64,000 nt of DNA from an uncultured Gammaproteobacteria bacterium (GTDB lineage Bacteria > Patescibacteriota > Microgenomatia > Levybacterales > UBA12049): NCBI GenBank assembly GCA_964424775.1, contig CAYRJZ010000004.1, forward strand, positions 3,262 through 67,261, written 5' to 3'. The translations under genes and the position numbers were made by a program. Position 1 is the stretch's first letter. Every line of letters starts with the position of its first letter. Below are positions 47,678-63,416 of the stretch, one piece after another. The notes beneath the pieces were generated by a model that did no database searches, was not told where the DNA came from, and worked only from the letters and a program-made list of their open reading frames with translations.

Positions 47678-48058
47678 CTCTTTTTAGCACTCTTTTCCCA
47701 CCACTGTGAAAATTTTATTTTAAGTTTGGCTTTTCACACCAATCTTTTTTACTTTCAAGAACAATTATCAGAGACAGGTCCTTACTGCTAAAACCCCTCT
47801 GTTAATGCATTTTTTCTTTCAACTTTCAAAAGGGTGACACTTTATTCCATTTAATGACAGCATCCTCTCATATCTCATCATATTTTTCTTTCCAATCTTA
47901 CGTCACCATTTAAGAGATTGACTGTCACAACTTCTCATCACAGAGCAATTTACTTATAGGTTATTGACACTGATGTTCTAGTTTGTTACTTTAATAGAGG
48001 GTAATAATCACATTGATTAGAATAAGTCTTAAATGACCATCTAAGACCCACTTAACCT

Positions 48059-48274
48059 ATGGCAGAACAAAAAATGTCTATCAATGACCTTCCAGATCTT
48101 CTCACAGTTCGTGAAGTAGCTGAAGTACTTCGTGTTTCACCTCTTACTATCAAACGTTGGGGGAAAAGAGGAAAATTACCTGCAATTCGTATTAACAGTC
48201 GTGGTGATAGACGATATAAAAAAGAAGCCGTCCTCTGGCTTCTGGGTATTCAGGAAAAAGGCGGAACGGTTTAG
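48059..48274 (+). CDS. Excisionase/MerR-type helix-turn-helix DNA-binding protein
   Basis: 71 aa. LLTVREVAEVLRVSPLTIKRWGKRGKLPAIRI matches the HTH_17/Xis-like motif. Confidence 0.6.
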   Translation: MAEQKMSINDLPDLLTVREVAEVLRVSPLTIKRWGKRGKLPAIRINSRGDRRYKKEAVLWLLGIQEKGGTV

Positions 48275-48331: not shown

Positions 48332-49072
48332 ATGGTAGAACACCTTTCCAATTCTCTAGTAGTACAAGAAGAAAAAACAATACCAAATGAAACCCTTCCG
48401 ACCCACCCTGATGCAATAGCAATCCTCAGTGGAGGCATTATGAATCGTCCACGCTTTGGCAGCGATTGGTTTGAGCCTACTAACTTTGCCCACGGACTTG
48501 GTGGAAAAGCCCGCGTCATTGCTGCAACAGAACTTGCCAACCAATTCCCCAAAGCCAAATTACTGACTCTCAGCCATGTCAATCCTGAAGTTCCCTCTCA
48601 GGCAGATATCTACGCTTCAACTCTCACCCGCTTCGGTGTCAAACCTGAACGAATAGTGAAAGACTCACACGCACATAATACGTTTTCAGAGCTCGTTGCC
48701 ATTCATAATCAAGCCGTTGAACAAGGGTGGCAACATATTTATGTTGTGAGCAATTCGTATCACAAAAGGGCACCGTATATGATAGAACATCTCAAAGAAA
48801 TCATCGACCACTATCATGTTCATGATCCTCAACTTATAGGAAGTGTACAAAAAACTCTGACATTTATCGCAGCAGAAGATTTACTCCAAGAACGAAATAA
48901 CCGATATAGAAGATTGATTGATCAATGGAAAGAGTCTCCATCTTACGAACGGCTTCTTCAACTGGAAGCAAAAGGCTTGCAAGATCTTCAAAACGGAGTA
49001 TATCATTTCTCTTCCCGAAGCGAAGCTGTAAGGACAGGTATCCTTATAAAAAATGTTCTCACATCCCTTTAA
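48332..49072 (+). CDS. DUF218 (YdcF/SanA-like) domain protein
   Basis: DAIAILSGG ... motif and size typical of DUF218. Confidence 0.55.
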   Translation: MVEHLSNSLVVQEEKTIPNETLPTHPDAIAILSGGIMNRPRFGSDWFEPTNFAHGLGGKARVIAATELANQFPKAKLLTLSHVNPEVPSQADIYASTLTRFGVKPERIVKDSHAHNTFSELVAIHNQAVEQGWQHIYVVSNSYHKRAPYMIEHLKEIIDHYHVHDPQLIGSVQKTLTFIAAEDLLQERNNRYRRLIDQWKESPSYERLLQLEAKGLQDLQNGVYHFSSRSEAVRTGILIKNVLTSL

Positions 49073-49099: not shown

Positions 49100-49145
49100 A
49101 TGAAAAGAACGCGGCCCAGTCCTCCTGAACTGGGCCGATTCGTCT
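49100..49145 (-). terminator. Terminator unit 1 of high-GC island (hairpin with GGAGG loop plus U-tract on minus strand)
   Basis: Minus strand reads agagacgaatcggcccagttcaggaggactgggccgcgttctttt. Confidence 0.55.
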
Positions 49146-49171
49146 CTGTTTGGAATTTGATGAGACCAAAC

Positions 49172-49444
49172 TCATCCCATCACACTTCGGACCCGGGTAG
49201 TGTATGCATCTACCCGGCCGATGGCAAGACGTACGACTTTACCGTCATACGACTCAACATCCCTTTTAGAGATGAGATAATATCTATACGGCTCAGGTTG
49301 GACCCAAAAGTCCTTTCTGATAACAAGGTACGAATCTGTTGTGCGGGAAACTATCCCGACTCCCCAGAATCGTGCTCCTTTTGGCAGGACTTTTGTCCCT
49401 TTCGGTATCTGAGTGAGGTCAATTTCACATTCCTGACCGAACAT
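49172..49444 (-). CDS. Small hypothetical protein (high-GC island)
   Basis: 90 aa. AAAGGAGA RBS 5 nt upstream of ATG. High GC. Possible small beta-barrel, uncertain. Confidence 0.45.
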   Translation of the reverse strand: MFGQECEIDLTQIPKGTKVLPKGARFWGVGIVSRTTDSYLVIRKDFWVQPEPYRYYLISKRDVESYDGKVVRLAIGRVDAYTTRVRSVMG

Positions 49445-49627
49445 GAGATTCTCCTTTTCCTAAGCCTCCCCCTACACAATGCAGAGAGAATTCGCTAAGA
49501 GACGATCTCAAGACAATAAAACAGATGTCTAAAACGCCATTGTTTTTTATCCATGAAATTGTCTTGAAGTCCCTCTTAATGAATGAAAATAGTATTCCCT
49601 CTTTCATCATTATGCCTATTACATAAT

Positions 49628-49668
49628 GACAAAAGAACGGCCCCGATCCTCCGATCGGGGCATTCGTC
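49628..49668 (-). terminator. Terminator unit 2 of high-GC island (homologous to unit 1, with compensatory stem changes)
   Basis: Minus strand reads agagacgaatgccccgatcggaggatcggggccgttctttt. Confidence 0.55.
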
Positions 49669-49698
49669 TCTCGCCTTTCGGCCAAACTACTCAGGACG

Positions 49699-50433
49699 TC
49701 AGGCGTCCATCTTTCCCTTCGAACCGAACAGATTCAGCAGGTCGCCGAAATTTGGCAAGCTGCCAATCTTTCGGTCTCTCGCCGACGAAAGCACTCCGAT
49801 GATGATCGGACTCGTCTCGTTGCGGAGCAGGTCGTCGATCTTCTGGTTCAGCTGCCCGCGAACGTCCTGTTCTGCCTTCTTGATGGCAGCAGTATACTCC
49901 GCCGTTGCGAACTCAAAGCCGAAACCTCTCCTCTGGTCCAAGACGCTCCTCCGGATCTCATCCAGAACAGACATGACTGCCACACGGATTGAGGTGTCAC
50001 CGACAACCTCAAGATACTTCACGATCGCCTGCCTTGCAGGAAGCTCATACTGATCGATCTCATGAGGGTACGGCATCGTCATGCGTACGATGACGAAGCC
50101 GAATTCCGGCGCCTTCTTCATCACATACGCTGCAAGCTCCTCCTGCGTCAGCACGAGCTGACTCGAAGGAGTGAGAAGCCGCCGCTCACCCGCAAGTTCC
50201 ACCTCATGCCCGTTTATGAGGACGGACGTGACGTACTGATGGAAAGGAGTGGTATTCCGGAACGTAAATCCCGGCACCATTCCCTTTTGTGGGATCACAA
50301 CGAACGGATGACCAGATCCGCAGGCTGGACAGTTGTTCAGCTCCAGGACTGCATCATCCGCGGTCACGACGAGATCGAAGGTGTTCACGCCTGTGAAAGG
50401 CGTAAGAAGTTGATCCTTTTCGGACTCGGTCAT
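49699..50433 (-). CDS. Hypothetical protein, paralogue A with CPxCGxxHP motif (high-GC island)
   Basis: 244 aa. GGGAGA RBS 8 nt upstream. NNCPACGSGHPFVV motif shared with the neighbouring gene. No family recognised. Confidence 0.5.
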   Translation of the reverse strand: MTESEKDQLLTPFTGVNTFDLVVTADDAVLELNNCPACGSGHPFVVIPQKGMVPGFTFRNTTPFHQYVTSVLINGHEVELAGERRLLTPSSQLVLTQEELAAYVMKKAPEFGFVIVRMTMPYPHEIDQYELPARQAIVKYLEVVGDTSIRVAVMSVLDEIRRSVLDQRRGFGFEFATAEYTAAIKKAEQDVRGQLNQKIDDLLRNETSPIIIGVLSSARDRKIGSLPNFGDLLNLFGSKGKMDA

Positions 50434-50775
50434 TGAATTGTTCTCCCTTTCAAAAATGATCGGTCTACTCCCATTTGCTGCAAATGCAGCAGACTTGCCA
50501 TCCGGGCAAAAGTCATCAGAAATGGAAGGGTCTGGCTAACGCCCTTAAAAAGAGACAACTTCCCTCCTTAAGGCCATTAGCCAGTGTGTAGTTTCGTAAA
50601 GAGACGATTTCAGGACAACATCACATCAATTCAGAACGCAAATGTTCTTTCTCTTCATGAATTATCCTGAAATTCCTCTTTACGATTAATTGTTAAAGTA
50701 CACTCTAGAAATATTTTTTTCGAGAGGCCCGGAGAGATTCCCCGGGCCTCCTGTTTTGTCTTGTACGACTTGTAG

Positions 50776-51453
50776 CTAGTTGCCCAGAATCCTGGCCAGG
50801 AAGGAACGTCGCTCCGACCGATGAGGTGGGAGCTCACCCATGTTGTTCGCGATGGTGGTCATGGTCATCACCATCGTGATCTCGAAATCCTCGCCGAAAG
50901 GAACTTCGGCAAGAGCTTCTTCGTAGGCTTCCTCGCTCATGTAGCCGAGGTTGATCTGAAGTGGTCCCCTTGAGACCAACTCTTCGATCGCCTGGTCGGC
51001 TCCCTCGTCGGGGGACTGATGGCCGAGTGCGCGGTAGAGCTCTGCGAGAGCACTCCCGGCATTCATCTGAATTTCCGCGAACTCCTCGCTCTCGACCGGA
51101 TGAAGGACCACGGTTATGGGTCCAGCAAAAGGCAGCTCCCCGTCGGAGGGGCCAAGGTCTGCCGGAGAGACCTCTACGACCTCACCGGGTTCGACGATCC
51201 GCTCTGGCTCTCCCTCGAGATCTGCAGGGAGATCGTAGTGATACACGCTGATTGTAGCGCGCACACTGAGCGGATTTTGAACGAGGAGCGTGGGAACTTC
51301 ACCTGTCACGTAGACAGGATGATCCCCACACCTCGGACAGACAACTGCAGGAATTTCCTGACGATCAGGACCGAGCACCTGGATCCCATACGTGGGACCT
51401 TCGTATGCTCGACGCTCATCGCCTTCGGTCTGGGACATTTCCTCGTCGGTCAT
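50776..51453 (-). CDS. Hypothetical acidic protein, paralogue B with CPxCGxHP motif (high-GC island)
   Basis: 225 aa from ATG 51453 (GGAGG RBS upstream); the ORF opens at 51528. VVCPRCGDHPVYV motif. Very acidic. Confidence 0.5.
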   Translation of the reverse strand: MTDEEMSQTEGDERRAYEGPTYGIQVLGPDRQEIPAVVCPRCGDHPVYVTGEVPTLLVQNPLSVRATISVYHYDLPADLEGEPERIVEPGEVVEVSPADLGPSDGELPFAGPITVVLHPVESEEFAEIQMNAGSALAELYRALGHQSPDEGADQAIEELVSRGPLQINLGYMSEEAYEEALAEVPFGEDFEITMVMTMTTIANNMGELPPHRSERRSFLARILGN

Positions 51454-51722
51454 TTTCTTCCTCCGAAACGAAAAAACGAGAGAATCACACAGCGTGACTC
51501 TCCACCGATCTTCACCAGCTCTTTCCAAGCATGGCTTATAACCGGCTTTCTAGACACAATTATGTCCAGAAAACCAGCTATAAGCACTTATAATCTAGTC
51601 GTTATTCCTTATTGAGAAAAAATAAATTCGCTTTTGAAGAATTAGCTTTCACTAATAAGGATTTTTAATGAGCAAAACGATTAAAATTATACTCTTCGAG
51701 GCTAGGAAAGTCAACTATAGGA

Positions 51723-52610
51723 CTAAGAATGAGTGTGATACTCTGCTCTGTGATTTTCTTTGATCTTTTTATAATCAGGATCCTGGAAGTGGTCTTTCAG
51801 AAATGCCATCGTCTCTTTCGGTGGCTGAGTATTAACGAATACGCCAGTCCCCACCTCAAACCCTCCTGTTGTTTTCTCCCGCGGAATAAGCCGGATATAC
51901 CAGTCCCCTCCTGGGTAAATATAGAAGTTATATGGGAATTCATCACCATGTCGTGCACTCATTATTTTTATGAGTTTGGAAAAAATACCAGCAAAATCAT
52001 GGATCTCATCATCTGTTATTTCGCCAAAGAGACGTCCATGTCGTTTTGGTGCTATCCACACCTCATCCGGCCATGAAGAGTACTGAGGACAAAAAATTGA
52101 GAAATGGGAAGTCTGCACTCCTTTTTCATCATCATGTGCAACACTTTGAAGTCGTGGGATCTCCAGAAGGACTTTCTCCGGCACAACTGCTATCTGTGTA
52201 TGTGAATGCGGAATACTCTCCCCTGCTTTTGGGCCGTGATTGTGGAAAATATAGACCTGACCTTTGTGGGCATGTTCATTATATCGCTGCCTATAAACCT
52301 GAAAAATTAGCTCAATTTGTTCAAGTGAAAAAGCATCAAATGAGGTATGGTGATCAGGAGTATTGAGAACAAGCTCATGATGAGTGGTAAAGGGAAATTT
52401 GTTCGGAATAACCCGGACTTGCCAATGCATATCTCCTTTCTCTCCTCCTATCCGATAATATTCTTCCTCCCGGCTTTCCCGTCCGGGACAAAAAGGACAT
52501 GCTGGCTCTGTTCCATTGGCTACATCTGGTCTTTTTGCTCGCCTTGGAGCAGATATTACCCATTTTTTCGAAATTGGATTTTGAAGGAAAGAAAAGGACT
52601 TATCACTCAT
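51723..52610 (-). CDS. galT: Galactose-1-phosphate uridylyltransferase family (HIT-like nucleotidyltransferase)
   Basis: SAPRRAKRP, zinc-site ACPFCPG and active-site FHNHGPKAGESIPHSHTQI align with GalT's SPHRAKRP / C-x-x-C / HPHGQ motifs. Confidence 0.7.
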   Translation of the reverse strand: MSDKSFSFLQNPISKKWVISAPRRAKRPDVANGTEPACPFCPGRESREEEYYRIGGEKGDMHWQVRVIPNKFPFTTHHELVLNTPDHHTSFDAFSLEQIELIFQVYRQRYNEHAHKGQVYIFHNHGPKAGESIPHSHTQIAVVPEKVLLEIPRLQSVAHDDEKGVQTSHFSIFCPQYSSWPDEVWIAPKRHGRLFGEITDDEIHDFAGIFSKLIKIMSARHGDEFPYNFYIYPGGDWYIRLIPREKTTGGFEVGTGVFVNTQPPKETMAFLKDHFQDPDYKKIKENHRAEYHTHS

Positions 52611-55451: not shown

Positions 55452-56263
55452 AATTTTAGTTTCTTCAAAAAGTCAGGGTCGCGAACATTTGACTCTCCTG
55501 CTTCATTCCCAGCAATTTCTTTTTTCCCAGTAAAATCCTTAAATTTGTTCTTGTCATTTGGTGTGTACTCCTCAACAACAAGTCCATCAACCATATGAAA
55601 AATCTTAGTTGCATATTTCAGATACTCCAGATCATGAGTAACCATAATAATTGTCTTCCCTTCTTCAACAAGAGAAGTAAAAGTCTGAATGAGTTCTTTA
55701 CCAGAAACAGTATCAAGATTTCCTGTCGGCTCATCAGCAACGATTATAACCGGATCTGTCATCATCGCACGGGCAAGACTAATTTTCTGCTGTTGTCCTG
55801 AAGAAAGCTCTGTTGGAGTATATTCTGCCCATTGAGCGAGTCCAACTTTTTCAAGTGATGCCATAGCTTTTTTATGAATCTCCTCAGTTTCTTTATCCAG
55901 AAGATGGAGAGGAAAGGTAATATTGTCAAAAACATTAAAAGACCCTACCCACAATGCCTGCTGATAAATCATACCGACTTTATGTCGTCTAAATAGTGCA
56001 CGCTCATCATCAGTCATTCCATAGAAATCCTGTCCCTCAACCATGACTTTTCCTGATGTTGGCGGCTCAAGGCCTAACAGTGTGTGCAACATCGTTGATT
56101 TACCACATCCTGAAGGACCAAAAATAATCACAAATTCACCCGTTTTAATAGTAATGTTAATCCCTTTCAATACTTCAACAGGTCCAGTCCCAACCGTAAA
56201 GGACTTTCTTAAATCTTTTGTCTCAATGAGTACTCTTTTTTCAGTTGTCATATTAATTTGCAA
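55448..56263 (-). CDS. ABC transporter ATP-binding protein (MacB/LolD-type)
   Basis: Walker A GPSGCGKST, signature LSGGQQQKISLARAM, Walker B IIVADEPTGNLD. Confidence 0.9.
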   Translation of the reverse strand: MQINMTTEKRVLIETKDLRKSFTVGTGPVEVLKGINITIKTGEFVIIFGPSGCGKSTMLHTLLGLEPPTSGKVMVEGQDFYGMTDDERALFRRHKVGMIYQQALWVGSFNVFDNITFPLHLLDKETEEIHKKAMASLEKVGLAQWAEYTPTELSSGQQQKISLARAMMTDPVIIVADEPTGNLDTVSGKELIQTFTSLVEEGKTIIMVTHDLEYLKYATKIFHMVDGLVVEEYTPNDKNKFKDFTGKKEIAGNEAGESNVRDPDFLKKLKL

Positions 56264-59200
56264 ATGGCGCTAAGAATCCAAATGTCCTCGCCAGATTCTC
56301 AATAACTAAATTAAGAGCTGCTTTTGTTGATTTAGGAGTAATGACTACCGTGTCAAAAGATTGTCCACGATTATTACCTTTATCTTTAGAAATTGCTTGA
56401 AGATGATATATTTTTGAAGGTGCAAGCCCTGTTATTGTTACGATGTGATTGGTAGTGAGGGTCGTATCTTCCTGTGTGGTTTGCGAATAATTTGTTCCGG
56501 TTCCTTCTCCATACTGAACTTGCGTTGTTGCAGGTTCATCTGTATCCCAACTTACTACTACCTGAGCACGCGCCTGGTCTCCTACACCAACAATTGTACT
56601 CTCAACATTCATATTTATAATTTCAGGTGAACGAAGATCAACAGCTGTTTTAAGTGTTTGGGCTGGATAAACTGCTTCATTCCCAGCTGCATCTTTTCCT
56701 TTCATGATAATTGTATAATCAGTATCATCACGAAGGTCTTTTAAGAGAACATCATGATTTCTCTTTAAGGCGAGATTTATTTGATCTTTTGCACCTGTTG
56801 AATCATTTGTTGGATAATAGGTAACTATTGTTGAAATCGGTGCATTAGTGTTCCACAGAAGTCTCACTGTTGCAGTTGCAAGGCCAGCAATTTGTTGAAT
56901 TCTCACATTGCCAATCTTTGGAACTGGAAGCGTCTGGAAAGTATAGTCATCACCAGCAAAAGTATTACCATCTTCATCCTCAGCTACAATTTGGAAATGA
57001 TAGAGTGTTCCCTCGGTCAAATCATCAATAACGACATTATGATCTGCTTCGTCTTTTCCAACAGAGACAACTTCTGTGCCTCCATATGAAAGCGTCTTCC
57101 CATACTTAATCGTTATTTTATTTGCACTCTTTGAAGTAAAACCAATGTATGCCGAATAGAGACTGATATTTGTTGCCTTTACTCCTGAGATAAATGGTGC
57201 CGGATCTGTTGTAAAGGTGTATTCTTTTGATTCTCCCTTGTTCCCGTCTTCATCAGTCCATATAGCTTTGTAATAATACGTTGCCCCTGGTGCTAAATTC
57301 AAAAGTTTGATTGAGTGAGCAGCTACCTGTTCTGATGATCCAACCTCTGTATCGTAACTACCTGATTTTGTTCCGTATTTCACAAATGTATTACTCGTTC
57401 GATCTGTGGACCAAGTAATTGTTGCTGTCTTTGTCTTCACAGTTGCAGAGGGACTTGCTGTAAGGCCAGGAGCTGCTTCCCATTTTCCATCTGGGTACAT
57501 AGTGACAGTACTTGAAGCAGCAGAACAATTATTCGTGCTATCACACGCTTTCACACAGTAATAATGATCTACCTGATCAATATCTGTATCTACATAGGAT
57601 TTTCCAGTTGTAGATGCTTTATAGGAAAAATCACTAAAGTTCGTAGTACATGAAGCTTCTGGGACAGTTGAGCTATATACTTTGTATGTTGAAACACCTG
57701 ACCCTGACGACTCCGGAGCTTCCCATGACAGGGCTAATTTCCAACTTGAAAGAGATTTAACAGAGATATCAGCAATGTCTAATTTTGTTGGCACTCCAGG
57801 TGCTGATGTGTCAGCAGTAAAGGTCACAGAGGCGTAATTATGATAATCAATGTTTCCTGCTTCATCTTTTGCAACAACATACATGATATTTGCACCAGGA
57901 AGTGTGGCATATGCATCTGTTGCTAAGTTCGTTGTTGAAAGTCCAACAACATTCACATTTTGGGATGTTGGAAGAGCATTTATAGAATAGTAATAACGAA
58001 GTGATGATTGCGCTCCAAAATAGACAGCTGGCGGATCCCAGGAGAATGAAAATTGGTTGACAGTATTACTACTTGGACTTACTTCCAAATTCTGTGGTGC
58101 ACTCGGTGCAGTTGCACTATAATAATATGAAACGCTGGAATATGTTGACGGTTTGTTCCCAGCTGTGTCTTCTGATCTCACATAGAAAGTGCTCGCTCCA
58201 GTTCCTCCTGCTAATACCCCACTGATAGATGCAACATTTACTCCACATGTTTCAGCTCCAGCAAGAGCAGTCTTATAACAATAACTTGCAACTCCAGAAG
58301 ATGCATCACTTGCACCACTCCAAGCAAAGGCAAAACTATTAACAGCAGTGTATCCCGAAGGATCTGCTGTCACTGTTGTTGGGTTTTCAGGCGCAACGTT
58401 ATCAAATTTATAAGTAAATGCTGCCCAGTTAGAGACGGAGGTATTCCCCGCATCATCAACCGTTTTGATGCGTAAATAGTAGGAATTTCCTGAAGTAAGA
58501 TCTGAAGCAGTGAAGTTTGTTGTTGTTTGGAGCGTTCCAGACGTAGATGCATCCGCATTCTGATCAGTCCCGAAATAGACATAGTAGCCTGTTATTCCAG
58601 ATCCTGCAGTACCATCTGTTGCTCCACCTGTTGCTTCAGCTGCTGGCCATACAAAATATGGAGCAGAGTAGTTATACCAGGTATTAGTCGTGAGCGACGC
58701 AGCTTGAGTTGCTGTCGAGTATACTGAAAGAACTGATGGATTAACTGGTAAAGATGTGTCTGAGTAATACTTGACTGCATAATCCTGAACAACACCTGAA
58801 TAAATTCCATCTGATGAGGTAAATTCAAATTGAACTTGAATGTACTGATTGCCAGGTGAATTTATCTTGTATTCATAATTGGAGCCATTTTGCTTTACCT
58901 CACTCGCCTGTGCCCATGAACTCCAAGTACTATTATCAGCTGATGTTCTTGTCTTCACCCCAAGAGTAGCATTGGTAGCGGAAGTATAAGTAACGCTTAT
59001 ATTAGAGAATTTATACACGCCTCCCAAATCAATTGAGGGAGTTATAAAATTACCTGTCTCTTCAAAAGATGATGAGTCGGTTTGGAACACATAACTATAG
59101 AGCCCATTATTAAATGTATTTGTCCCTGCCCCAGCAATAACATACATCCGATCAACCCCGTTGCTTGCTGCAGAACCTCCAGCTGTTATATTCGCAGGAG

Positions 59201-62200
59201 CATTGGTAATTGTTGACCATGTATTCGTTGAAATAATGTACTGAAAACAGGTGACCGTGTTTGCACCCCTGCAGGCAAATAACCTATCACTTCCCCCATC
59301 AGCTAGAAATCCATCTGCACCGACAGTATTCCCTGTTGCCAAATCTGCAACTGCTGGATCTGACCATGTATTTGCCGAGATGTCGTATCTATAAAATCCA
59401 AGCTGTGAGTTTCCTCGTAATGCATAGATGTACCCTCCTTTTATAACCATCGATCCTCCTGCTCCAATTGCTGCAGGAGCTACAGTAAGACTACTCCAAC
59501 GGTTTCCATTACTTCCCTGTGTATCGTATCTATAAAATGTTGTTGTATTTCCTCCTCGAAGAAGATAAAGATATCTTGTCCCGTCAAATTTCATTGCAGA
59601 GCCTGCACCAGGCGCTGCGGGAACTGGATCAGTATGGTCTTCATACCAATAGTTATTTGTAATGTCATACACAAAAAAGCGTTGAAGAAGTGAACTTGTG
59701 AGCGCATATACCCGATTATTAACACTATCAAATGCCATGACTGCCCCTGTTGTCATACCATTTGGGATATCTTGAAGGTGTGTGACCGTCCCACTCTGAG
59801 CATTATATTTAATAAAAAGACTATCTACTCCTCCACGTGTAATAAAGTAGTCGTTTCCACTTCCTTTTACTATCTGTGCTCCTGTGGTAAATGTTCGAAG
59901 GTCTGATCCTCTAAAATTAGTTCCAAATAAATTATTATTCGGGATCTGCCAGGATGATTTTGCAATATTATATGTATAAAAATTTTGAGTTCCACCACCT
60001 CTGAGAATATAGAGAATGCCATCAACATTTCGCATTGCTGCAGACGTCGTCAATCCGATTGGTGCATCCGATAGCTCACTCCAAGTTTCTGATCCAATAT
60101 CATACTTATAAAAAGCCGTCTTAGCTCCTGCTGGGATATAGTACACAGCGTTACTTGTTTCATCATACTCAATTTGAGCGCCTTCAGCAGATGCGGCTGC
60201 TGGCAGATTAGGGAGTGAGGTCCATGAGTTGGTTGATATTGTATAGCGAGAAAAACCAGTTCTTCCACCGCCCTGGATGGCAAAAATAGTATCATCATCG
60301 ACAGATGACAAATTACCACCTGCACCAACGACATTATTTATCTGATTTGTCGGTGCACCAAAATCAGTATTTGTTAATGTCTCCCATGTATCTGTTTGGG
60401 TATCATAACGAAGGAAAGTATCATCTCCATTTCCTTTCAGTCCGTATATGTAGCGTGACCCATCATAAATAAGTGATGATCCTGTTGAAAAAGGTTGAGG
60501 AGCATCTGCAGCTGCCCCATCATCCCAGGTATTTGTTGTTGAATCATATCGCCAAAATGATGAAGTATTATTTCCCCGTGCTCCAAAAACATAGCCAGAA
60601 GGACCTGCTGCCAATGCTCCACCTGTTGTAACTGCAGCCGGCGCTACTGCGAGTGTCGTCCAGGTATCAGTTGCGATATCATATTCATAAAAGGTGGTCG
60701 TATTTCCTCCTCTGAATGTATAGAGCGTATCTGAATCTCTATCGTATGCCCAACCAGCGCCACTATTAACACCTGCTGGCGGAATACTTAGCCTATACTC
60801 AGTCCAAAAACCGCTTTTTGATGCTAATTTAATTTCATCATTAGCAACTGAAACATTCGTTGTTGTCCCGCCAGTAAAATCTGCTGTTGATGATTTTACC
60901 GTCTCAGAGACATCTACTCCTGAATAGACATACGTAAATGCTGCCAAAGTACTGCTCATGTTATTTTCTGCATCAACAGTTTTCAAACGGAGATAATAAG
61001 TATTGCCTGATGTAAGTGGGGTTGTAACAGTATAGGTACTCGATGTTTGAAGTGATCCAGATACAGCAGGGTCAGCAGAACTTGACGTTCCAAAATAGAC
61101 ATAATATCCAGCAACTGATGTTTCACTATCACTTGCGCCGCTCCAGGTAAAATAAGGATTTGCATAAGAATAGGTACTTCCAGAATTTAATGTGACACCT
61201 GAAATTGATTGGGAGTGACCTGTCACTGTTGAAGGATTGCTCGGGCTTGCTGTATCTCCTGAATAATTTATTGTTATGTCATGAAGGGTAGGAGTTTGGG
61301 TTTGACCGGTTGAAGACGTAAGAGTTGCTCGAACTTGCAAATATCTTCTTGCCGGAGACTGAATACTTCCACTAGAAAGAGATTGCCATGATGACCAGGA
61401 AGATCTATCCGTACTACTTCTTGTTTGAAATGAAATACTTGTATCAGAAGGAGTTGATGCTGTGGATGTCAACGTACTAAAACTTGAAACATATTCAAGA
61501 TCAAGTGTATCACTCGTCCAGGTACCCGAAGCGGGATAATTAGTACTTCCTATTGCATATGTCTGCCACCACAAACTATTTGCCCCGAAGGTAGAAAAAA
61601 GATTTCCTCCGCCATCGCTAGCAAGGGAAGCTCCATTATATGGCCCTTGGTCATATGCATATAGTGTCGCAATATCTGGAAGTCTTCTCCATTCATTACT
61701 TGAGAGAGTATACTCCCAAAACTCCTTTTTATAATAACCTGCCTGAACATATAACTTCCCATTGTAGTAATTCATATCAGTTCCGTAATAAACAGAAAAT
61801 GGAATATTAGAAAGATAACTCCATGTATCTGTTGCGACCGTATATTTCATTAGTCTTGATGTTCCGTTACCGCTTAAAAAATATATATCTGTTCCGTCAC
61901 TGATCAATCGAGAACCAATTCCAGCTACTGCATCTGATGGAAGGTTCGCAGCCCCTGCATCATCCCAAGTATCACCAGAAATACTATATCTGTAAAATGT
62001 TGATGTATTAAGTCCTCTTGTGATATAGAGATAATTACCTGATCCTGGATAGACAACACTTGACCCTCCCCCAAGTGATGCTGGAGACACTGCTAACGTG
62101 GTAAAACTATTACCTACTGGATCATAACGATAGAATGCAGTGGTACTGCTTCCCCGTGGATAATAGAGATAAGCCCCTGCTGATGCACCTTTTGTATCAT

Positions 62201-63416
62201 CTGCACGAGTTGCAGGAAAAGCTGCTAGTAAACCAGACCAAGTTCCATTTGCCAAATCATATCGATACAAATTAGTTGTTGAATTACCACGAGCATAATA
62301 GAGATATCCTTGATGATTAATGACGTCAGATCCTGTTCCGGGAGTATTAGGTAAATCCGTATTCCCAACAAAAGTATCAGAATCTATATCATACTTCCAA
62401 AACTCCTGTGTGTTATTCCCCCGAAAAACATACAGGTATCCATCTCCTGAATGATAAACAACTCCTACAAAACCAGTTGTTTGAGGGGTATTGGTAAGCG
62501 TGGACCAAGCGTTCGTAGATATTTGATAACGGTAGAAAGAATTTGTTGTTGATCCTCTCAAAACATAAATATAATCTCCGTTGACAGATATGTTGCCATC
62601 ACTATTGAGTGTCGCTGGAGCATTAGCCATTGTTGACCACGAATTGCCTGAAACATCATAGCGATAAAAAGTATTTGTATTTCCTCCACGTGGGGTATAG
62701 AAATACCCACCACTATAAATAAGACTTCCTCCGATACTTATCGTTGCAGGAGTTGAAGATACTGCATTCCATGAATTTGATGAAACAGTGTATTTCCAAA
62801 AATCTGTTGTGCCTGCACCTCGGGTAACAAAAATATTTGTACCATCCGTTCCCACTGATGCTCCTGCATAGACGAGATCTGGGAGATCAGCCAATCTTGT
62901 CCAGGTATTAAGAGAAATAGAGTACTTATAAAATTCTTTCTGATATCCTCCAAATATTGCATAAATATTATCACCGAGAATTTTCATATCACTTCCCTGA
63001 TAGGAATAGTACGGTGCACGAGCTAATTGTTTCCAAGAATTTGTTTGGGGATCATACCTCAGGAAAAGATTATCGCCACTTACTTTGACATATAAATACG
63101 ACCCATCACTGACGACAGATGTTTGGTCTCCGAGCGCAATATGGGGAGTTTTCCAGACTCGTGTATTCCAGCTTCCTGTCGCCTGAAGCCGCAACTCTGC
63201 TGAGCGACTAGAAGCTTCAGTTCCACTAAAATTCCCAGAGTTAAATTGTGTCGTTGAATTGATACTCATTGAGGCTGCAAACGCGGGCTGTAGGGAAAAT
63301 GAAAAAGTTGGAAGAATAATAAAAATACAGAAAAGTACGGCAACAATCTTTCTCATATTAATACTCCTATGAGCAAATTCAGATTCCTGCCTACTGAATA
63401 CGCTATTAATTAACAA
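56253..63416 (-). CDS. Giant secreted surface protein (2387 aa) with kelch-like beta-propeller repeat blocks and FN3 domains
   Basis: Signal peptide MRKIVAVLFCIFIILPTFSFSLQPAFAAS. More than 25 repeats of about 50 aa of the form N/T-x-F/W-Y-R/K-Y-D/S-x-x-x-N/D-x-W-x-x-L (e.g. NTFYRYDVSGNSWSTM, TNLYRYDLANGTWSGL). Interspersed FN3-like modules (GYYVYFGTSSSAD...YYLRLKTVD). Confidence 0.8.
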   Translation of the reverse strand: MLINSVFSRQESEFAHRSINMRKIVAVLFCIFIILPTFSFSLQPAFAASMSINSTTQFNSGNFSGTEASSRSAELRLQATGSWNTRVWKTPHIALGDQTSVVSDGSYLYVKVSGDNLFLRYDPQTNSWKQLARAPYYSYQGSDMKILGDNIYAIFGGYQKEFYKYSISLNTWTRLADLPDLVYAGASVGTDGTNIFVTRGAGTTDFWKYTVSSNSWNAVSSTPATISIGGSLIYSGGYFYTPRGGNTNTFYRYDVSGNSWSTMANAPATLNSDGNISVNGDYIYVLRGSTTNSFYRYQISTNAWSTLTNTPQTTGFVGVVYHSGDGYLYVFRGNNTQEFWKYDIDSDTFVGNTDLPNTPGTGSDVINHQGYLYYARGNSTTNLYRYDLANGTWSGLLAAFPATRADDTKGASAGAYLYYPRGSSTTAFYRYDPVGNSFTTLAVSPASLGGGSSVVYPGSGNYLYITRGLNTSTFYRYSISGDTWDDAGAANLPSDAVAGIGSRLISDGTDIYFLSGNGTSRLMKYTVATDTWSYLSNIPFSVYYGTDMNYYNGKLYVQAGYYKKEFWEYTLSSNEWRRLPDIATLYAYDQGPYNGASLASDGGGNLFSTFGANSLWWQTYAIGSTNYPASGTWTSDTLDLEYVSSFSTLTSTASTPSDTSISFQTRSSTDRSSWSSWQSLSSGSIQSPARRYLQVRATLTSSTGQTQTPTLHDITINYSGDTASPSNPSTVTGHSQSISGVTLNSGSTYSYANPYFTWSGASDSETSVAGYYVYFGTSSSADPAVSGSLQTSSTYTVTTPLTSGNTYYLRLKTVDAENNMSSTLAAFTYVYSGVDVSETVKSSTADFTGGTTTNVSVANDEIKLASKSGFWTEYRLSIPPAGVNSGAGWAYDRDSDTLYTFRGGNTTTFYEYDIATDTWTTLAVAPAAVTTGGALAAGPSGYVFGARGNNTSSFWRYDSTTNTWDDGAAADAPQPFSTGSSLIYDGSRYIYGLKGNGDDTFLRYDTQTDTWETLTNTDFGAPTNQINNVVGAGGNLSSVDDDTIFAIQGGGRTGFSRYTISTNSWTSLPNLPAAASAEGAQIEYDETSNAVYYIPAGAKTAFYKYDIGSETWSELSDAPIGLTTSAAMRNVDGILYILRGGGTQNFYTYNIAKSSWQIPNNNLFGTNFRGSDLRTFTTGAQIVKGSGNDYFITRGGVDSLFIKYNAQSGTVTHLQDIPNGMTTGAVMAFDSVNNRVYALTSSLLQRFFVYDITNNYWYEDHTDPVPAAPGAGSAMKFDGTRYLYLLRGGNTTTFYRYDTQGSNGNRWSSLTVAPAAIGAGGSMVIKGGYIYALRGNSQLGFYRYDISANTWSDPAVADLATGNTVGADGFLADGGSDRLFACRGANTVTCFQYIISTNTWSTITNAPANITAGGSAASNGVDRMYVIAGAGTNTFNNGLYSYVFQTDSSSFEETGNFITPSIDLGGVYKFSNISVTYTSATNATLGVKTRTSADNSTWSSWAQASEVKQNGSNYEYKINSPGNQYIQVQFEFTSSDGIYSGVVQDYAVKYYSDTSLPVNPSVLSVYSTATQAASLTTNTWYNYSAPYFVWPAAEATGGATDGTAGSGITGYYVYFGTDQNADASTSGTLQTTTNFTASDLTSGNSYYLRIKTVDDAGNTSVSNWAAFTYKFDNVAPENPTTVTADPSGYTAVNSFAFAWSGASDASSGVASYCYKTALAGAETCGVNVASISGVLAGGTGASTFYVRSEDTAGNKPSTYSSVSYYYSATAPSAPQNLEVSPSSNTVNQFSFSWDPPAVYFGAQSSLRYYYSINALPTSQNVNVVGLSTTNLATDAYATLPGANIMYVVAKDEAGNIDYHNYASVTFTADTSAPGVPTKLDIADISVKSLSSWKLALSWEAPESSGSGVSTYKVYSSTVPEASCTTNFSDFSYKASTTGKSYVDTDIDQVDHYYCVKACDSTNNCSAASSTVTMYPDGKWEAAPGLTASPSATVKTKTATITWSTDRTSNTFVKYGTKSGSYDTEVGSSEQVAAHSIKLLNLAPGATYYYKAIWTDEDGNKGESKEYTFTTDPAPFISGVKATNISLYSAYIGFTSKSANKITIKYGKTLSYGGTEVVSVGKDEADHNVVIDDLTEGTLYHFQIVAEDEDGNTFAGDDYTFQTLPVPKIGNVRIQQIAGLATATVRLLWNTNAPISTIVTYYPTNDSTGAKDQINLALKRNHDVLLKDLRDDTDYTIIMKGKDAAGNEAVYPAQTLKTAVDLRSPEIINMNVESTIVGVGDQARAQVVVSWDTDEPATTQVQYGEGTGTNYSQTTQEDTTLTTNHIVTITGLAPSKIYHLQAISKDKGNNRGQSFDTVVITPKSTKAALNLVIENLARTFGFLAPFAN

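Follow-up and report, generated by a model that had tools for sequence, protein, structure and literature searches.

The stretch of DNA analysed here (the window, 64 kb) comes from a genome of Levybacteria, members of the Candidate Phyla Radiation (CPR), and holds a small, GC-rich island at 49.1-51.7 kb in which three minus-strand open reading frames (ORFs), C, B and A, fill the space between convergent GalT-like and MerR-like genes. A sequence-only reading of the island had drawn attention to a short word, AGAGACGA, that recurs between its genes on both strands, and had proposed that the word is a shared operator or a repeat associated with a mobile element. We find that all four true copies of the word belong to RNA helices of one transcript strand (minus), in 5' and 3' modules common to gene cassettes with unrelated ORFs. 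The island and its borders comprise:

51723-52610, minus strand: GalT/DUF4931-like gene, flanking the island
51686-51714, minus strand: predicted island promoter, TTGACT-17-TATAAT, directly 3' of the stop codon of the GalT-like gene
50776-51456, minus strand: gene C, 226 aa, no family in a Pfam scan
49699-50433, minus strand: gene B, 244 aa, no family in the same scan
49172-49444, minus strand: gene A, an orphan ORF of 90 aa, again without a Pfam family, with AAGGAG 7 nt before its ATG
48332-49072, plus strand: DUF218 gene, flanking the island, convergent with gene A and ending at 49072
48059-48274, plus strand: MerR/HTH_17 gene, 71 aa, flanking the island

The word is not at background frequency: the window contains nine matches to AGAGACGA where 1.46 are expected, and 0 of 100 shuffles reach nine. 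Four lie inside 1.5 kb of the island, at 49140-49147 (minus), 49498-49505 (plus), 49664-49671 (minus) and 50600-50607 (plus). The remaining five fall within coding sequence, with flanks unrelated to one another, and one of these is a conserved codon run of the GalT-like gene. Genes A and B are each followed by an intrinsic terminator, the two being homologous, and the two minus-strand island copies serve as their 5' flanks. The two on the plus strand are complementary to UCGUCUCU and to the invariant AUCGUCUC (which reads GAGACGAT on the opposite strand) in the 3' arm of minus-strand hairpins that we call units A and B; because these copies complement the 3' arm of a minus-strand hairpin, all four sit in helices of a single transcript strand. 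The features first described at the locus are present, at slightly shifted coordinates, but of the five non-coding copies originally counted in 1.5 kb only these four stand. The fifth, AGAGACAA at 50551-50558 (plus), occupies the apex of a hairpin in the leader of gene B, and the orthologous sequence in a related locus, L001 (related loci are given L numbers throughout), reads AGAGGTAA; the word is not conserved there, and we therefore regard it as a look-alike. The modules that contain the true copies are:

50594-50685, minus strand: unit B, 92 nt; P1 UCGUAAAGAG/CUCUUUACGA, loop GA/CGU, P2 AUUUCAGG/CCUGAAAU; 71.2 bits with covariance model R1
49631-49671, minus strand: 3' module of gene B; AGAGACGAAU at 49671-49662, 9-bp GC stem-loop at 49661-49640, CGUUCUUUU at 49639-49631
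49492-49582, minus strand: unit A, 91 nt; P1 UCAUUAAGAG/CUCUUAGCGA, internal loop GG/CGU, then P2; 65.3 bits with R1
49103-49147, minus strand: 3' module of gene A; AGAGACGAAU at 49147-49138, 11-bp GC stem-loop at 49137-49112, CGUUCUUUU at 49111-49103

Units A and B are homologous, about 70% identical, and fold stably (A, -30.5 kcal/mol, z = -5.7; B, -38.6 kcal/mol, z = -7.9), as do the units of L001, L004 (two), L007 and L011 (z = -5.8 to -7.2). Each begins with a 10-bp P1 of the UCAUAAAGAG/CUCUUUAUGA type, followed by an internal loop of fixed 2x3 form whose 3' side reads CGU, a P2 that starts with an A-U pair, and a variable distal stem. Across islands the unit spans 91-125 nt, and the ten units that were folded form about 34-49 pairs; an RNase III processing hairpin needs at least about 20 bp of mostly continuous duplex RNA on the strand that is transcribed. 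Degenerate searches of the window with either unit arm returned only units A and B, and a search for the core plus stem complementarity over both strands of 1.87 Mb yielded exactly seven units, all in islands and all on the ORF strand: two in the window, one in L001, two in L004 and one each in L007 and L011. A metagenome scan added units in L073 and L075 (both L007-like), L074 (identical to L004u2, the second unit of L004) and L076, where the module has one ORF, a predicted promoter of its own (TTGATT-17-TGaTAAAAT) and a different genomic context, for a total of 11 copies at nine loci, all on the ORF strand. Covariance model R1 separated the known units (65-108 bits) from the best unrelated match (22.8 bits) over 966 kb, and a search of Rfam gave no match for the unit, returning only transfer RNAs and an L10 leader elsewhere together with chance-level matches. 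An exact-pattern scan for the window-type unit, TTGTCNTGNNATCGTCTCTTNNCGAA, found 0 matches in genome, viral and metagenome contigs; the L011-type pattern had 0 matches in viral contigs and five in the metagenome, one of which (L072) arose by chance. Sliding-window folding of the L002, L029 and L040 islands revealed ordinary terminators and no unit.

The unit helices are conserved by covariation on the sense strand. In alignment A2, which was trimmed and partly selected for complementarity so that its figures are inflated, 96.8% of cells are paired and 10 of 18 pairs changed on both sides, with slid-partner controls at 39-50%. RNAalifold applied to full-length units independently recovered P1, the 2x3 loop and P2, with compensatory changes in 7 of 14 pairs. 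The sense strand folds better than the antisense strand by 4-22 kcal/mol in 10 of 10 units folded, and eight cells of the pair-count alignment are G.U; the stronger sense fold and the G.U cells argue that the unit is an RNA of the gene strand and not a symmetric DNA site.

The 3' modules were likewise borne out as a pair of homologous minus-strand terminators with shared flanks. A consensus terminator scan called both, with 11 pairs for A and 9 for B (8 and 7 of them G-C) and the tails CGTTCTTTTC and CGTTCTTTTG, and they fold at -27.8 (A) and -30.6 (B) kcal/mol, with z about -5.6. Each consists of a GC-rich stem-loop and then a U-run, 25-30 nt past the same-strand stops at 49172 and 49699, as expected of an intrinsic terminator; AGAGACG pairs with the U-tract side and thereby lengthens the terminator stem. 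The homology of the A and B 3' untranslated regions (UTRs) begins right at the stop codons, and terminator A faces the convergent DUF218 gene. The compensating stem changes that had been noted between the two are real: aligned outward from the loop, the stems differ by two double-sided changes (U-A/A-U and A-U/C-G) and a one-sided one (U.G/U-A), and aligned from the base they differ by three double-sided changes. Terminator B is conserved in L001, where a further C-G pair has become U.G. The GGAGG loops seen earlier correspond to an apex, GGAGGA, that terminators A and B share with the L001 orthologue. On the minus strand, Shine-Dalgarno-like GGAGG thus occurs at the apexes of both terminators (49112-49137 and 49640-49661), and it is found again inside the second leader hairpin of gene B (50540-50575); the apex sequence is kept in L001 and absent from the 3' elements of other islands. 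Compensatory changes in the terminator stems say by themselves only that both are still terminators. The informative conservation is that of the long 5' hairpin, and of the complementarity between its UCGUCUC and a 3' GAGACGA, across the islands of different species.

This heptamer, GAGACGA, lies shortly past the last stop codon in the window (twice), L001, L004, L011 and L076, and the UCGUCUC of the unit is its complement. In the lineage of L007, L073 and L075 the two have changed together, the unit carrying AUCAUCUC and the 3' end GAGAUGA, so that CAU is matched with GAUGA. The 3' strand of the terminal element in L073 and L075 also reads CAUCU or UCAUC, and because this strand changed too, the heptamer has two possible partners, a local one with which it closes the 3' module and the one in the unit. 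The heptamer covariation represents one evolutionary event and is no more than suggestive.

The modules are more conserved than the genes that they bracket. The orthologues of B and C (69% and 61% identity, one each among 5.8 billion proteins) sit on one Logan contig, L001, whose gene order is GalT, C, B, MerR and in which unit B and terminator B are retained. The identity of the window to L001 is 82-90% in the UTRs and 85-91% in the flanking core genes, whereas ORF B is 77% and ORF C 73% identical, with coding-type codon-position substitutions, many of them at first and second positions, which suggests that B and C are fast-evolving proteins. L001, the closest relative, lacks unit A, gene A and terminator A. 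L001 continues past its terminator B with the sequence that in the window comes after terminator A. The roughly 525 bp of cassette A, made up of unit, ORF and terminator, are therefore an indel flanked by the two terminator copies. At the place of the intact DUF218 gene of the window, L001 (9769-9900) has a remnant encoding the C-terminal 44 residues (52% identity), and has thus lost most of DUF218.

We fetched 70 further loci (L002-L071) via the GalT-like protein; they place the organism in Candidatus Levyibacteriota, and A, B and C are encoded in none of them. In many of these loci (L012, L021, L050 and others) GalT and MerR are convergent neighbours, while in the window, L001, L002, L004, L007, L011, L029 and L040 the gap is occupied by a block of same-strand, GC-richer orphan ORFs; in L004 (two units), L007 and L011, a unit stands upstream of ORFs unrelated to those of the window. 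The ORF sets of L002, L004, L007, L011, L029 and L040 differ, span 1.4-6.4 kb and are each begun by a TTGAC...TAYAAT promoter. In Levybacteria the gap between the convergent GalT and MerR genes is a hotspot for insertions, and in these islands it showed no att-like duplication. Of the 39 related loci with a match to the MerR/HTH_17 protein, 37 have it at 81-96% identity, whereas the neighbouring GalT-like protein is only 44-71% identical across related loci, and a promoter-like block of about 40 nt upstream of the MerR/HTH_17 gene (47954-47993; TTATAGGTTATTGACA...TACTTTAAT) is also kept in several species.

On balance, we think it probable that the AGAGACGA copies are strands of RNA helices in conserved 5' and 3' UTR scaffolds, a processing or stability hairpin and a terminator, of variable orphan-gene cassettes. 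The function that we infer for these scaffolds starts with an island transcript made from its own predicted promoter, which is probably strong and whose context, CCTATAGTTGAC, is kept in L001, L004, L007 and L011. By analogy with the sites of the phage T7 early region, the long hairpins would then be double-stranded RNA processing or stabilizing sites between cistrons, most plausibly substrates of an RNase III-type enzyme; the 3' modules would end and protect the transcripts; and the complementary heptamers could join the 5' end of a cistron to its 3' end by base pairing, or act as a switch from local to long-range contacts and back.

Several points weigh against this reading. The 5'-3' complementarity extends over just 7-8 nt, with a single covarying event and a heptamer that can equally pair within the 3' module. 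Promoter, transcript 3' ends and cleavage are all predicted. Both terminators, that of B and that of A, carry good U-tracts; if they are efficient, gene A must have a promoter of its own, of which none was recognized. In L011 two ORFs follow one unit; units do not part every pair of ORFs, and a rule of one processing site per cistron is therefore not strict. The known units come from only seven lineages, several of them closely related, and the A2 pair counts are subject to the inflation noted above.

Other structures of the minus strand accompany the units and terminators:

51479-51585, minus strand: structured leader of gene C; a hairpin with 26-nt arms at 51534-51585 (81% complementary), then a terminator-like hairpin and U-run at 51503-51479
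50723-50752, minus strand: hairpin after gene C, -25.9 kcal/mol, with no U-tract on the mRNA strand
50691-50701, minus strand: M1 block, GUACUUUAACA, just upstream of unit B; boxA-like, matching 10 of 11 positions of GYTCTTTAANA
50532-50584, minus strand: second leader hairpin of gene B; arms 50532-50555 and 50561-50584, -35 kcal/mol, apex AGAGACAA
49606-49629, minus strand: small 8-bp inverted repeat, TCATTATG...CATAATGA, between terminator B and unit A, within the segment missing in L001

The hairpin at 50723-50752 had been noted just downstream of a 'gene B'; it is real and, in the lettering used here, lies downstream of C (226 aa) and upstream of B (244 aa). In appearance it is a shortened version of 3' elements of roughly 90 nt (closing stem GAGAGGCAC/GUGCCUCUC) that follow the ORFs of related islands. 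In the islands of L004, L007, L011, L073 and L075 each ORF is followed by a structure of about 90-180 nt with closing stem CCGAGAGGCAC/GUGCCUCUCGG, Y-shaped and about 90 nt in L007, L011, L073 and L075; these structures (L004 9505-9650 and 11313-11490; L007 3236-3335 and 3833-3925; L011 9400-9505 and 10344-10440; also L073 and L075) had no Rfam match. In the leader of gene C, which is 90% conserved in L001, the terminator-like hairpin sits directly before the ribosome-binding site, an attenuator-like layout.

M1-like blocks stand upstream of units in L001, L004, L007, L011 and L073-L076, and the form G[U/C]ACUUUAACA precedes most units. The match to GYTCTTTAANA is 10 of 11 in the window, L001, L004u2, L073 and L075, although this consensus is gamma-proteobacterial and may not be that of Levybacteria; M1 as a boxA is only a lead. 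No ribosomal RNA (rRNA) leader was found in any locus examined. A perfect Escherichia coli-type boxA word, GCTCTTTAACAA, followed by a small hairpin, occurs at 1170 in L043 upstream of an ordinary 144-aa ORF, and similar words, GCACATTAACAA and GTTCTTTGACAA, lie in ORF leaders of the L002 (13571) and L029 (11574) islands.

The genes themselves offer few clues. Genes B and C have a G+C content of 55-60% in a genome of about 38%, and the island ORFs tested against Pfam and PHROGs gave only a sub-threshold DUF7918 match and a weak PHROG of unknown function; by the PHROGs comparison, no phage genes were found in this chromosomal island. The 19 ORFs scanned at 37.9-63.4 kb, covering about 11 kb on one side of the island and about 12 kb on the other, included 0 with an integrase, recombinase or transposase domain. 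No homologue of gene A was found in a database from which gene A itself is also missing. An exhaustive HMMER search with B found one further homologue (33%), adjoining a MerR-like gene, and repeats in giant proteins: a segment of about 60 residues (about 50-115 of B) resembles a repeat that occurs 13 times and 7 times in giant proteins of 1911 and 2275 aa. A Kelch/fn3 protein of 2387 aa is encoded in the window as well, at 56253-63416. Paralogy between B and C was not detectable, and the AlphaFold model of B (predicted local distance difference test score 42.5) was too poor to support a fold search.

Several further identities for the unit were tried and set aside. A sigma-70 promoter within it (TTGTCC-17-GAAACT, or TTAACA as the -35 element) is contradicted by -10 candidates that lack the conserved T6 and by the varying spacing of M1; an extracytoplasmic function (ECF)-type AAC...CGTC promoter has no AAC at the right distance; a retron or group II intron would come with a reverse transcriptase, and there is none. 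CGTCTC is the BsmBI/Esp3I site, and a restriction site leaves the placement and covariation of the word unexplained.

The alternatives differ in what they take the scaffold to be. It may resemble that of rRNA operons, M1 acting as a boxA that loads NusB/NusE and makes the polymerase termination-resistant while the leader is held near the exit channel, and UCGUCUC-GAGACGA forming a leader-trailer helix for each cistron as a processing substrate. The 10-of-11 matches of M1 in five units' leaders, with the critical positions C4 and U6 kept, fit this proposal, as do the position of M1 in L076 a few nucleotides past the predicted promoter, a second boxA-like word (GCUCAUUAAAA) after the island promoter and the covarying, complementary leader and trailer heptamers; in rrn operons, too, boxA is followed by a boxC that pairs with the trailer. 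But the AT-rich window shows no enrichment of words one mismatch away from the consensus (25, where 18.5 are expected), the consensus is borrowed from gamma-proteobacteria, unit A has no M1, the spacing between M1 and unit varies, and the helix would have 7-8 bp against the >17 bp reportedly needed for the 16S leader-trailer helix. We hold this reading to be rather doubtful. In its broadest form, CPR orphan cassettes would carry an rRNA-operon-like scaffold of a boxA-type Nus site, a processing hairpin and a heptamer pair, by which each horizontally acquired cistron is transcribed termination-resistantly, looped, and excised or stabilized; this is a speculative proposal and a rather improbable one, which if true would make the scaffold a portable expression chassis that plugs unrelated foreign ORFs into one hotspot. 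A reading at the level of DNA, with units as folded single-stranded or double-stranded sites for a recombinase encoded elsewhere (attC-like or dif-module-like) or as palindromes of the kind found in miniature inverted-repeat transposable elements (MITEs) and repetitive extragenic palindromes (REPs), draws on the insertion hotspot, where GalT and MerR adjoin in many loci and enclose different GC-rich ORF sets in others, on the cassette A indel bounded by terminator copies, on the complete module of L076 in another genomic context and on an attC-like layout of basal helix, unpaired spacer, second helix and variable tip, in which P1 amounts to a 10-bp terminal inverted repeat. Yet there is no RYYYAAC/GTTRRRY core and no integrase, recombinase or transposase domain among the 19 neighbouring ORFs, the boundaries of the A indel lie in terminators and not in units, units are not one per ORF, the two copies in the window are both in the island, and about 900 kb of related DNA has no copy outside islands; stems that are rich in G.U and asymmetric between strands, always in sense orientation, suit a transcript better. 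We judge a recombination site unlikely. An attC site in particular was rejected: the hairpins have UCAUAAAGAG/CUCUUUAUGA at their base and the terminators AGAGACGAAU/CGUUCUUUU as flanks, with no RYYYAAC...GTTRRRY, and no recombinase domain of the intI kind occurs in the ORFs scanned.

That cassette A merely duplicates the UTRs of B around a new ORF, the motif being shared by descent and serving ordinary termination, would account for the homology between A and B, which extends over about 90 nt in the 5' UTR and about 75 nt in the 3' UTR, and for the absence of a homologue of A from the database search. Such plain paralogy is very unlikely, however, to be the whole explanation, as the unit core and 3' heptamer are kept in other species' islands with unrelated ORFs, the UTRs are more conserved than the ORFs, and the stems covary. 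The operator first proposed, to which a protein such as the adjacent 71-aa MerR/HTH_17 product would bind at GAGACGA on both strands and so control the island, would explain why the 7-mer is invariant across species in both orientations and why a highly conserved helix-turn-helix protein (85-96% identical across the phylum) borders the islands of the GalT-MerR gap. The AGAGACGA sites, however, have no dyad symmetry and no fixed place relative to the one clear promoter, no gene-strand promoter was called beside any copy, two sites lie past stop codons in 3' UTRs, and the MerR-like gene is equally conserved in genomes without island or motif. RNA pairing, G.U pairs included, explains the flanks of every site, and base pairing predicts just such a coordinated change of G to A with C to U, whereas at a protein site the specificity of the protein would have had to change at the same time. 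It is accordingly most improbable that the 8-mer is a stand-alone operator on both strands; what survives of the original suggestion is that the repeat belongs to a variable, island-associated module.

With the copies read as strands of UTR scaffolds, the locus provides a covariation-supported family of RNA hairpins without an Rfam match in CPR bacteria, used as 5' and 3' untranslated scaffolds that can be employed again and again around fast-evolving orphan genes at an insertion hotspot. To our knowledge, almost nothing is known of cis-regulatory RNA in these bacteria, in which no genetic manipulation is yet possible. Should the scaffolds govern processing, stability or read-through, the expression of foreign GC-rich genes in an AT-rich reduced genome would have an explanation, and R1 together with the heptamer pair would serve as a sequence handle for finding such cassettes in metagenomes. 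The immediate value lies in a corrected annotation and an RNA motif of narrow distribution (seven lineages) and inferred function, not in a demonstrated mechanism.

Compared with known systems, the island resembles integron cassette arrays in its same-strand, promoterless, compositionally odd orphan ORFs behind one promoter, and in hairpins with basal boxes, a spacer, a variable tip and strand-specific folding; unlike attC, these hairpins have no AAC/GTT core and no integrase nearby, they precede an ORF leader instead of marking a cassette end, and the indel breakpoints fall in terminators. REP, Correia and MITE-like palindromes are also intergenic hairpins of about 100 nt with terminal inverted repeats that are co-transcribed and may affect mRNA processing, but the units number 2 in 64 kb, confined to the island, with none outside islands in 966 kb, and their copies are about 70% identical and fixed in orientation. 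The 3' modules are like intrinsic (bidirectional) terminators in having a GC stem-loop and a U-run 25-30 nt past the stop, with the purine tract AGAGACGAAU pairing with the U-tract side and, in the case of terminator A, a position between convergent genes; they differ from ordinary ones in flanks that are conserved across cassettes and species and complementary to a 5'-UTR element, and in an apex, GGAGGA, kept in three close copies. The early transcript of phage T7 has RNase III processing hairpins between its cistrons (R0.3 to R1.3). Like these, the units are long intergenic hairpins of the mRNA strand with an asymmetric internal loop, conserved near that loop and variable elsewhere, behind what is predicted to be one strong upstream promoter; unlike them, they have much longer stems (about 34-49 pairs), their cleavage is a prediction, and they lie in a CPR chromosomal island without phage genes.

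Two systems bear on the heptamers. In Staphylococcus aureus, the 5' and 3' UTRs of the icaR mRNA pair, again by way of a short motif in the 3' UTR that is the complement of one in the 5' UTR; here the 5' partner would be the internal loop and stem of a long hairpin and not a Shine-Dalgarno sequence, and the pairing is predicted from sequence. The rrn leaders combine boxA with a leader-trailer helix, of which >17 bp are needed for the 16S helix (PMC10250234, PMC5725501). Our scaffolds depart from these leaders in bracketing protein-coding ORFs, in a complementarity of 7-8 nt and in a boxA match that is imperfect and not enriched, but in both a boxA-like word is followed by a stretch of leader whose complement lies immediately 3' of the transcribed unit (PMC10250234, PMC5725501), and the rrn arrangement is the closest analogy to the heptamer pair.

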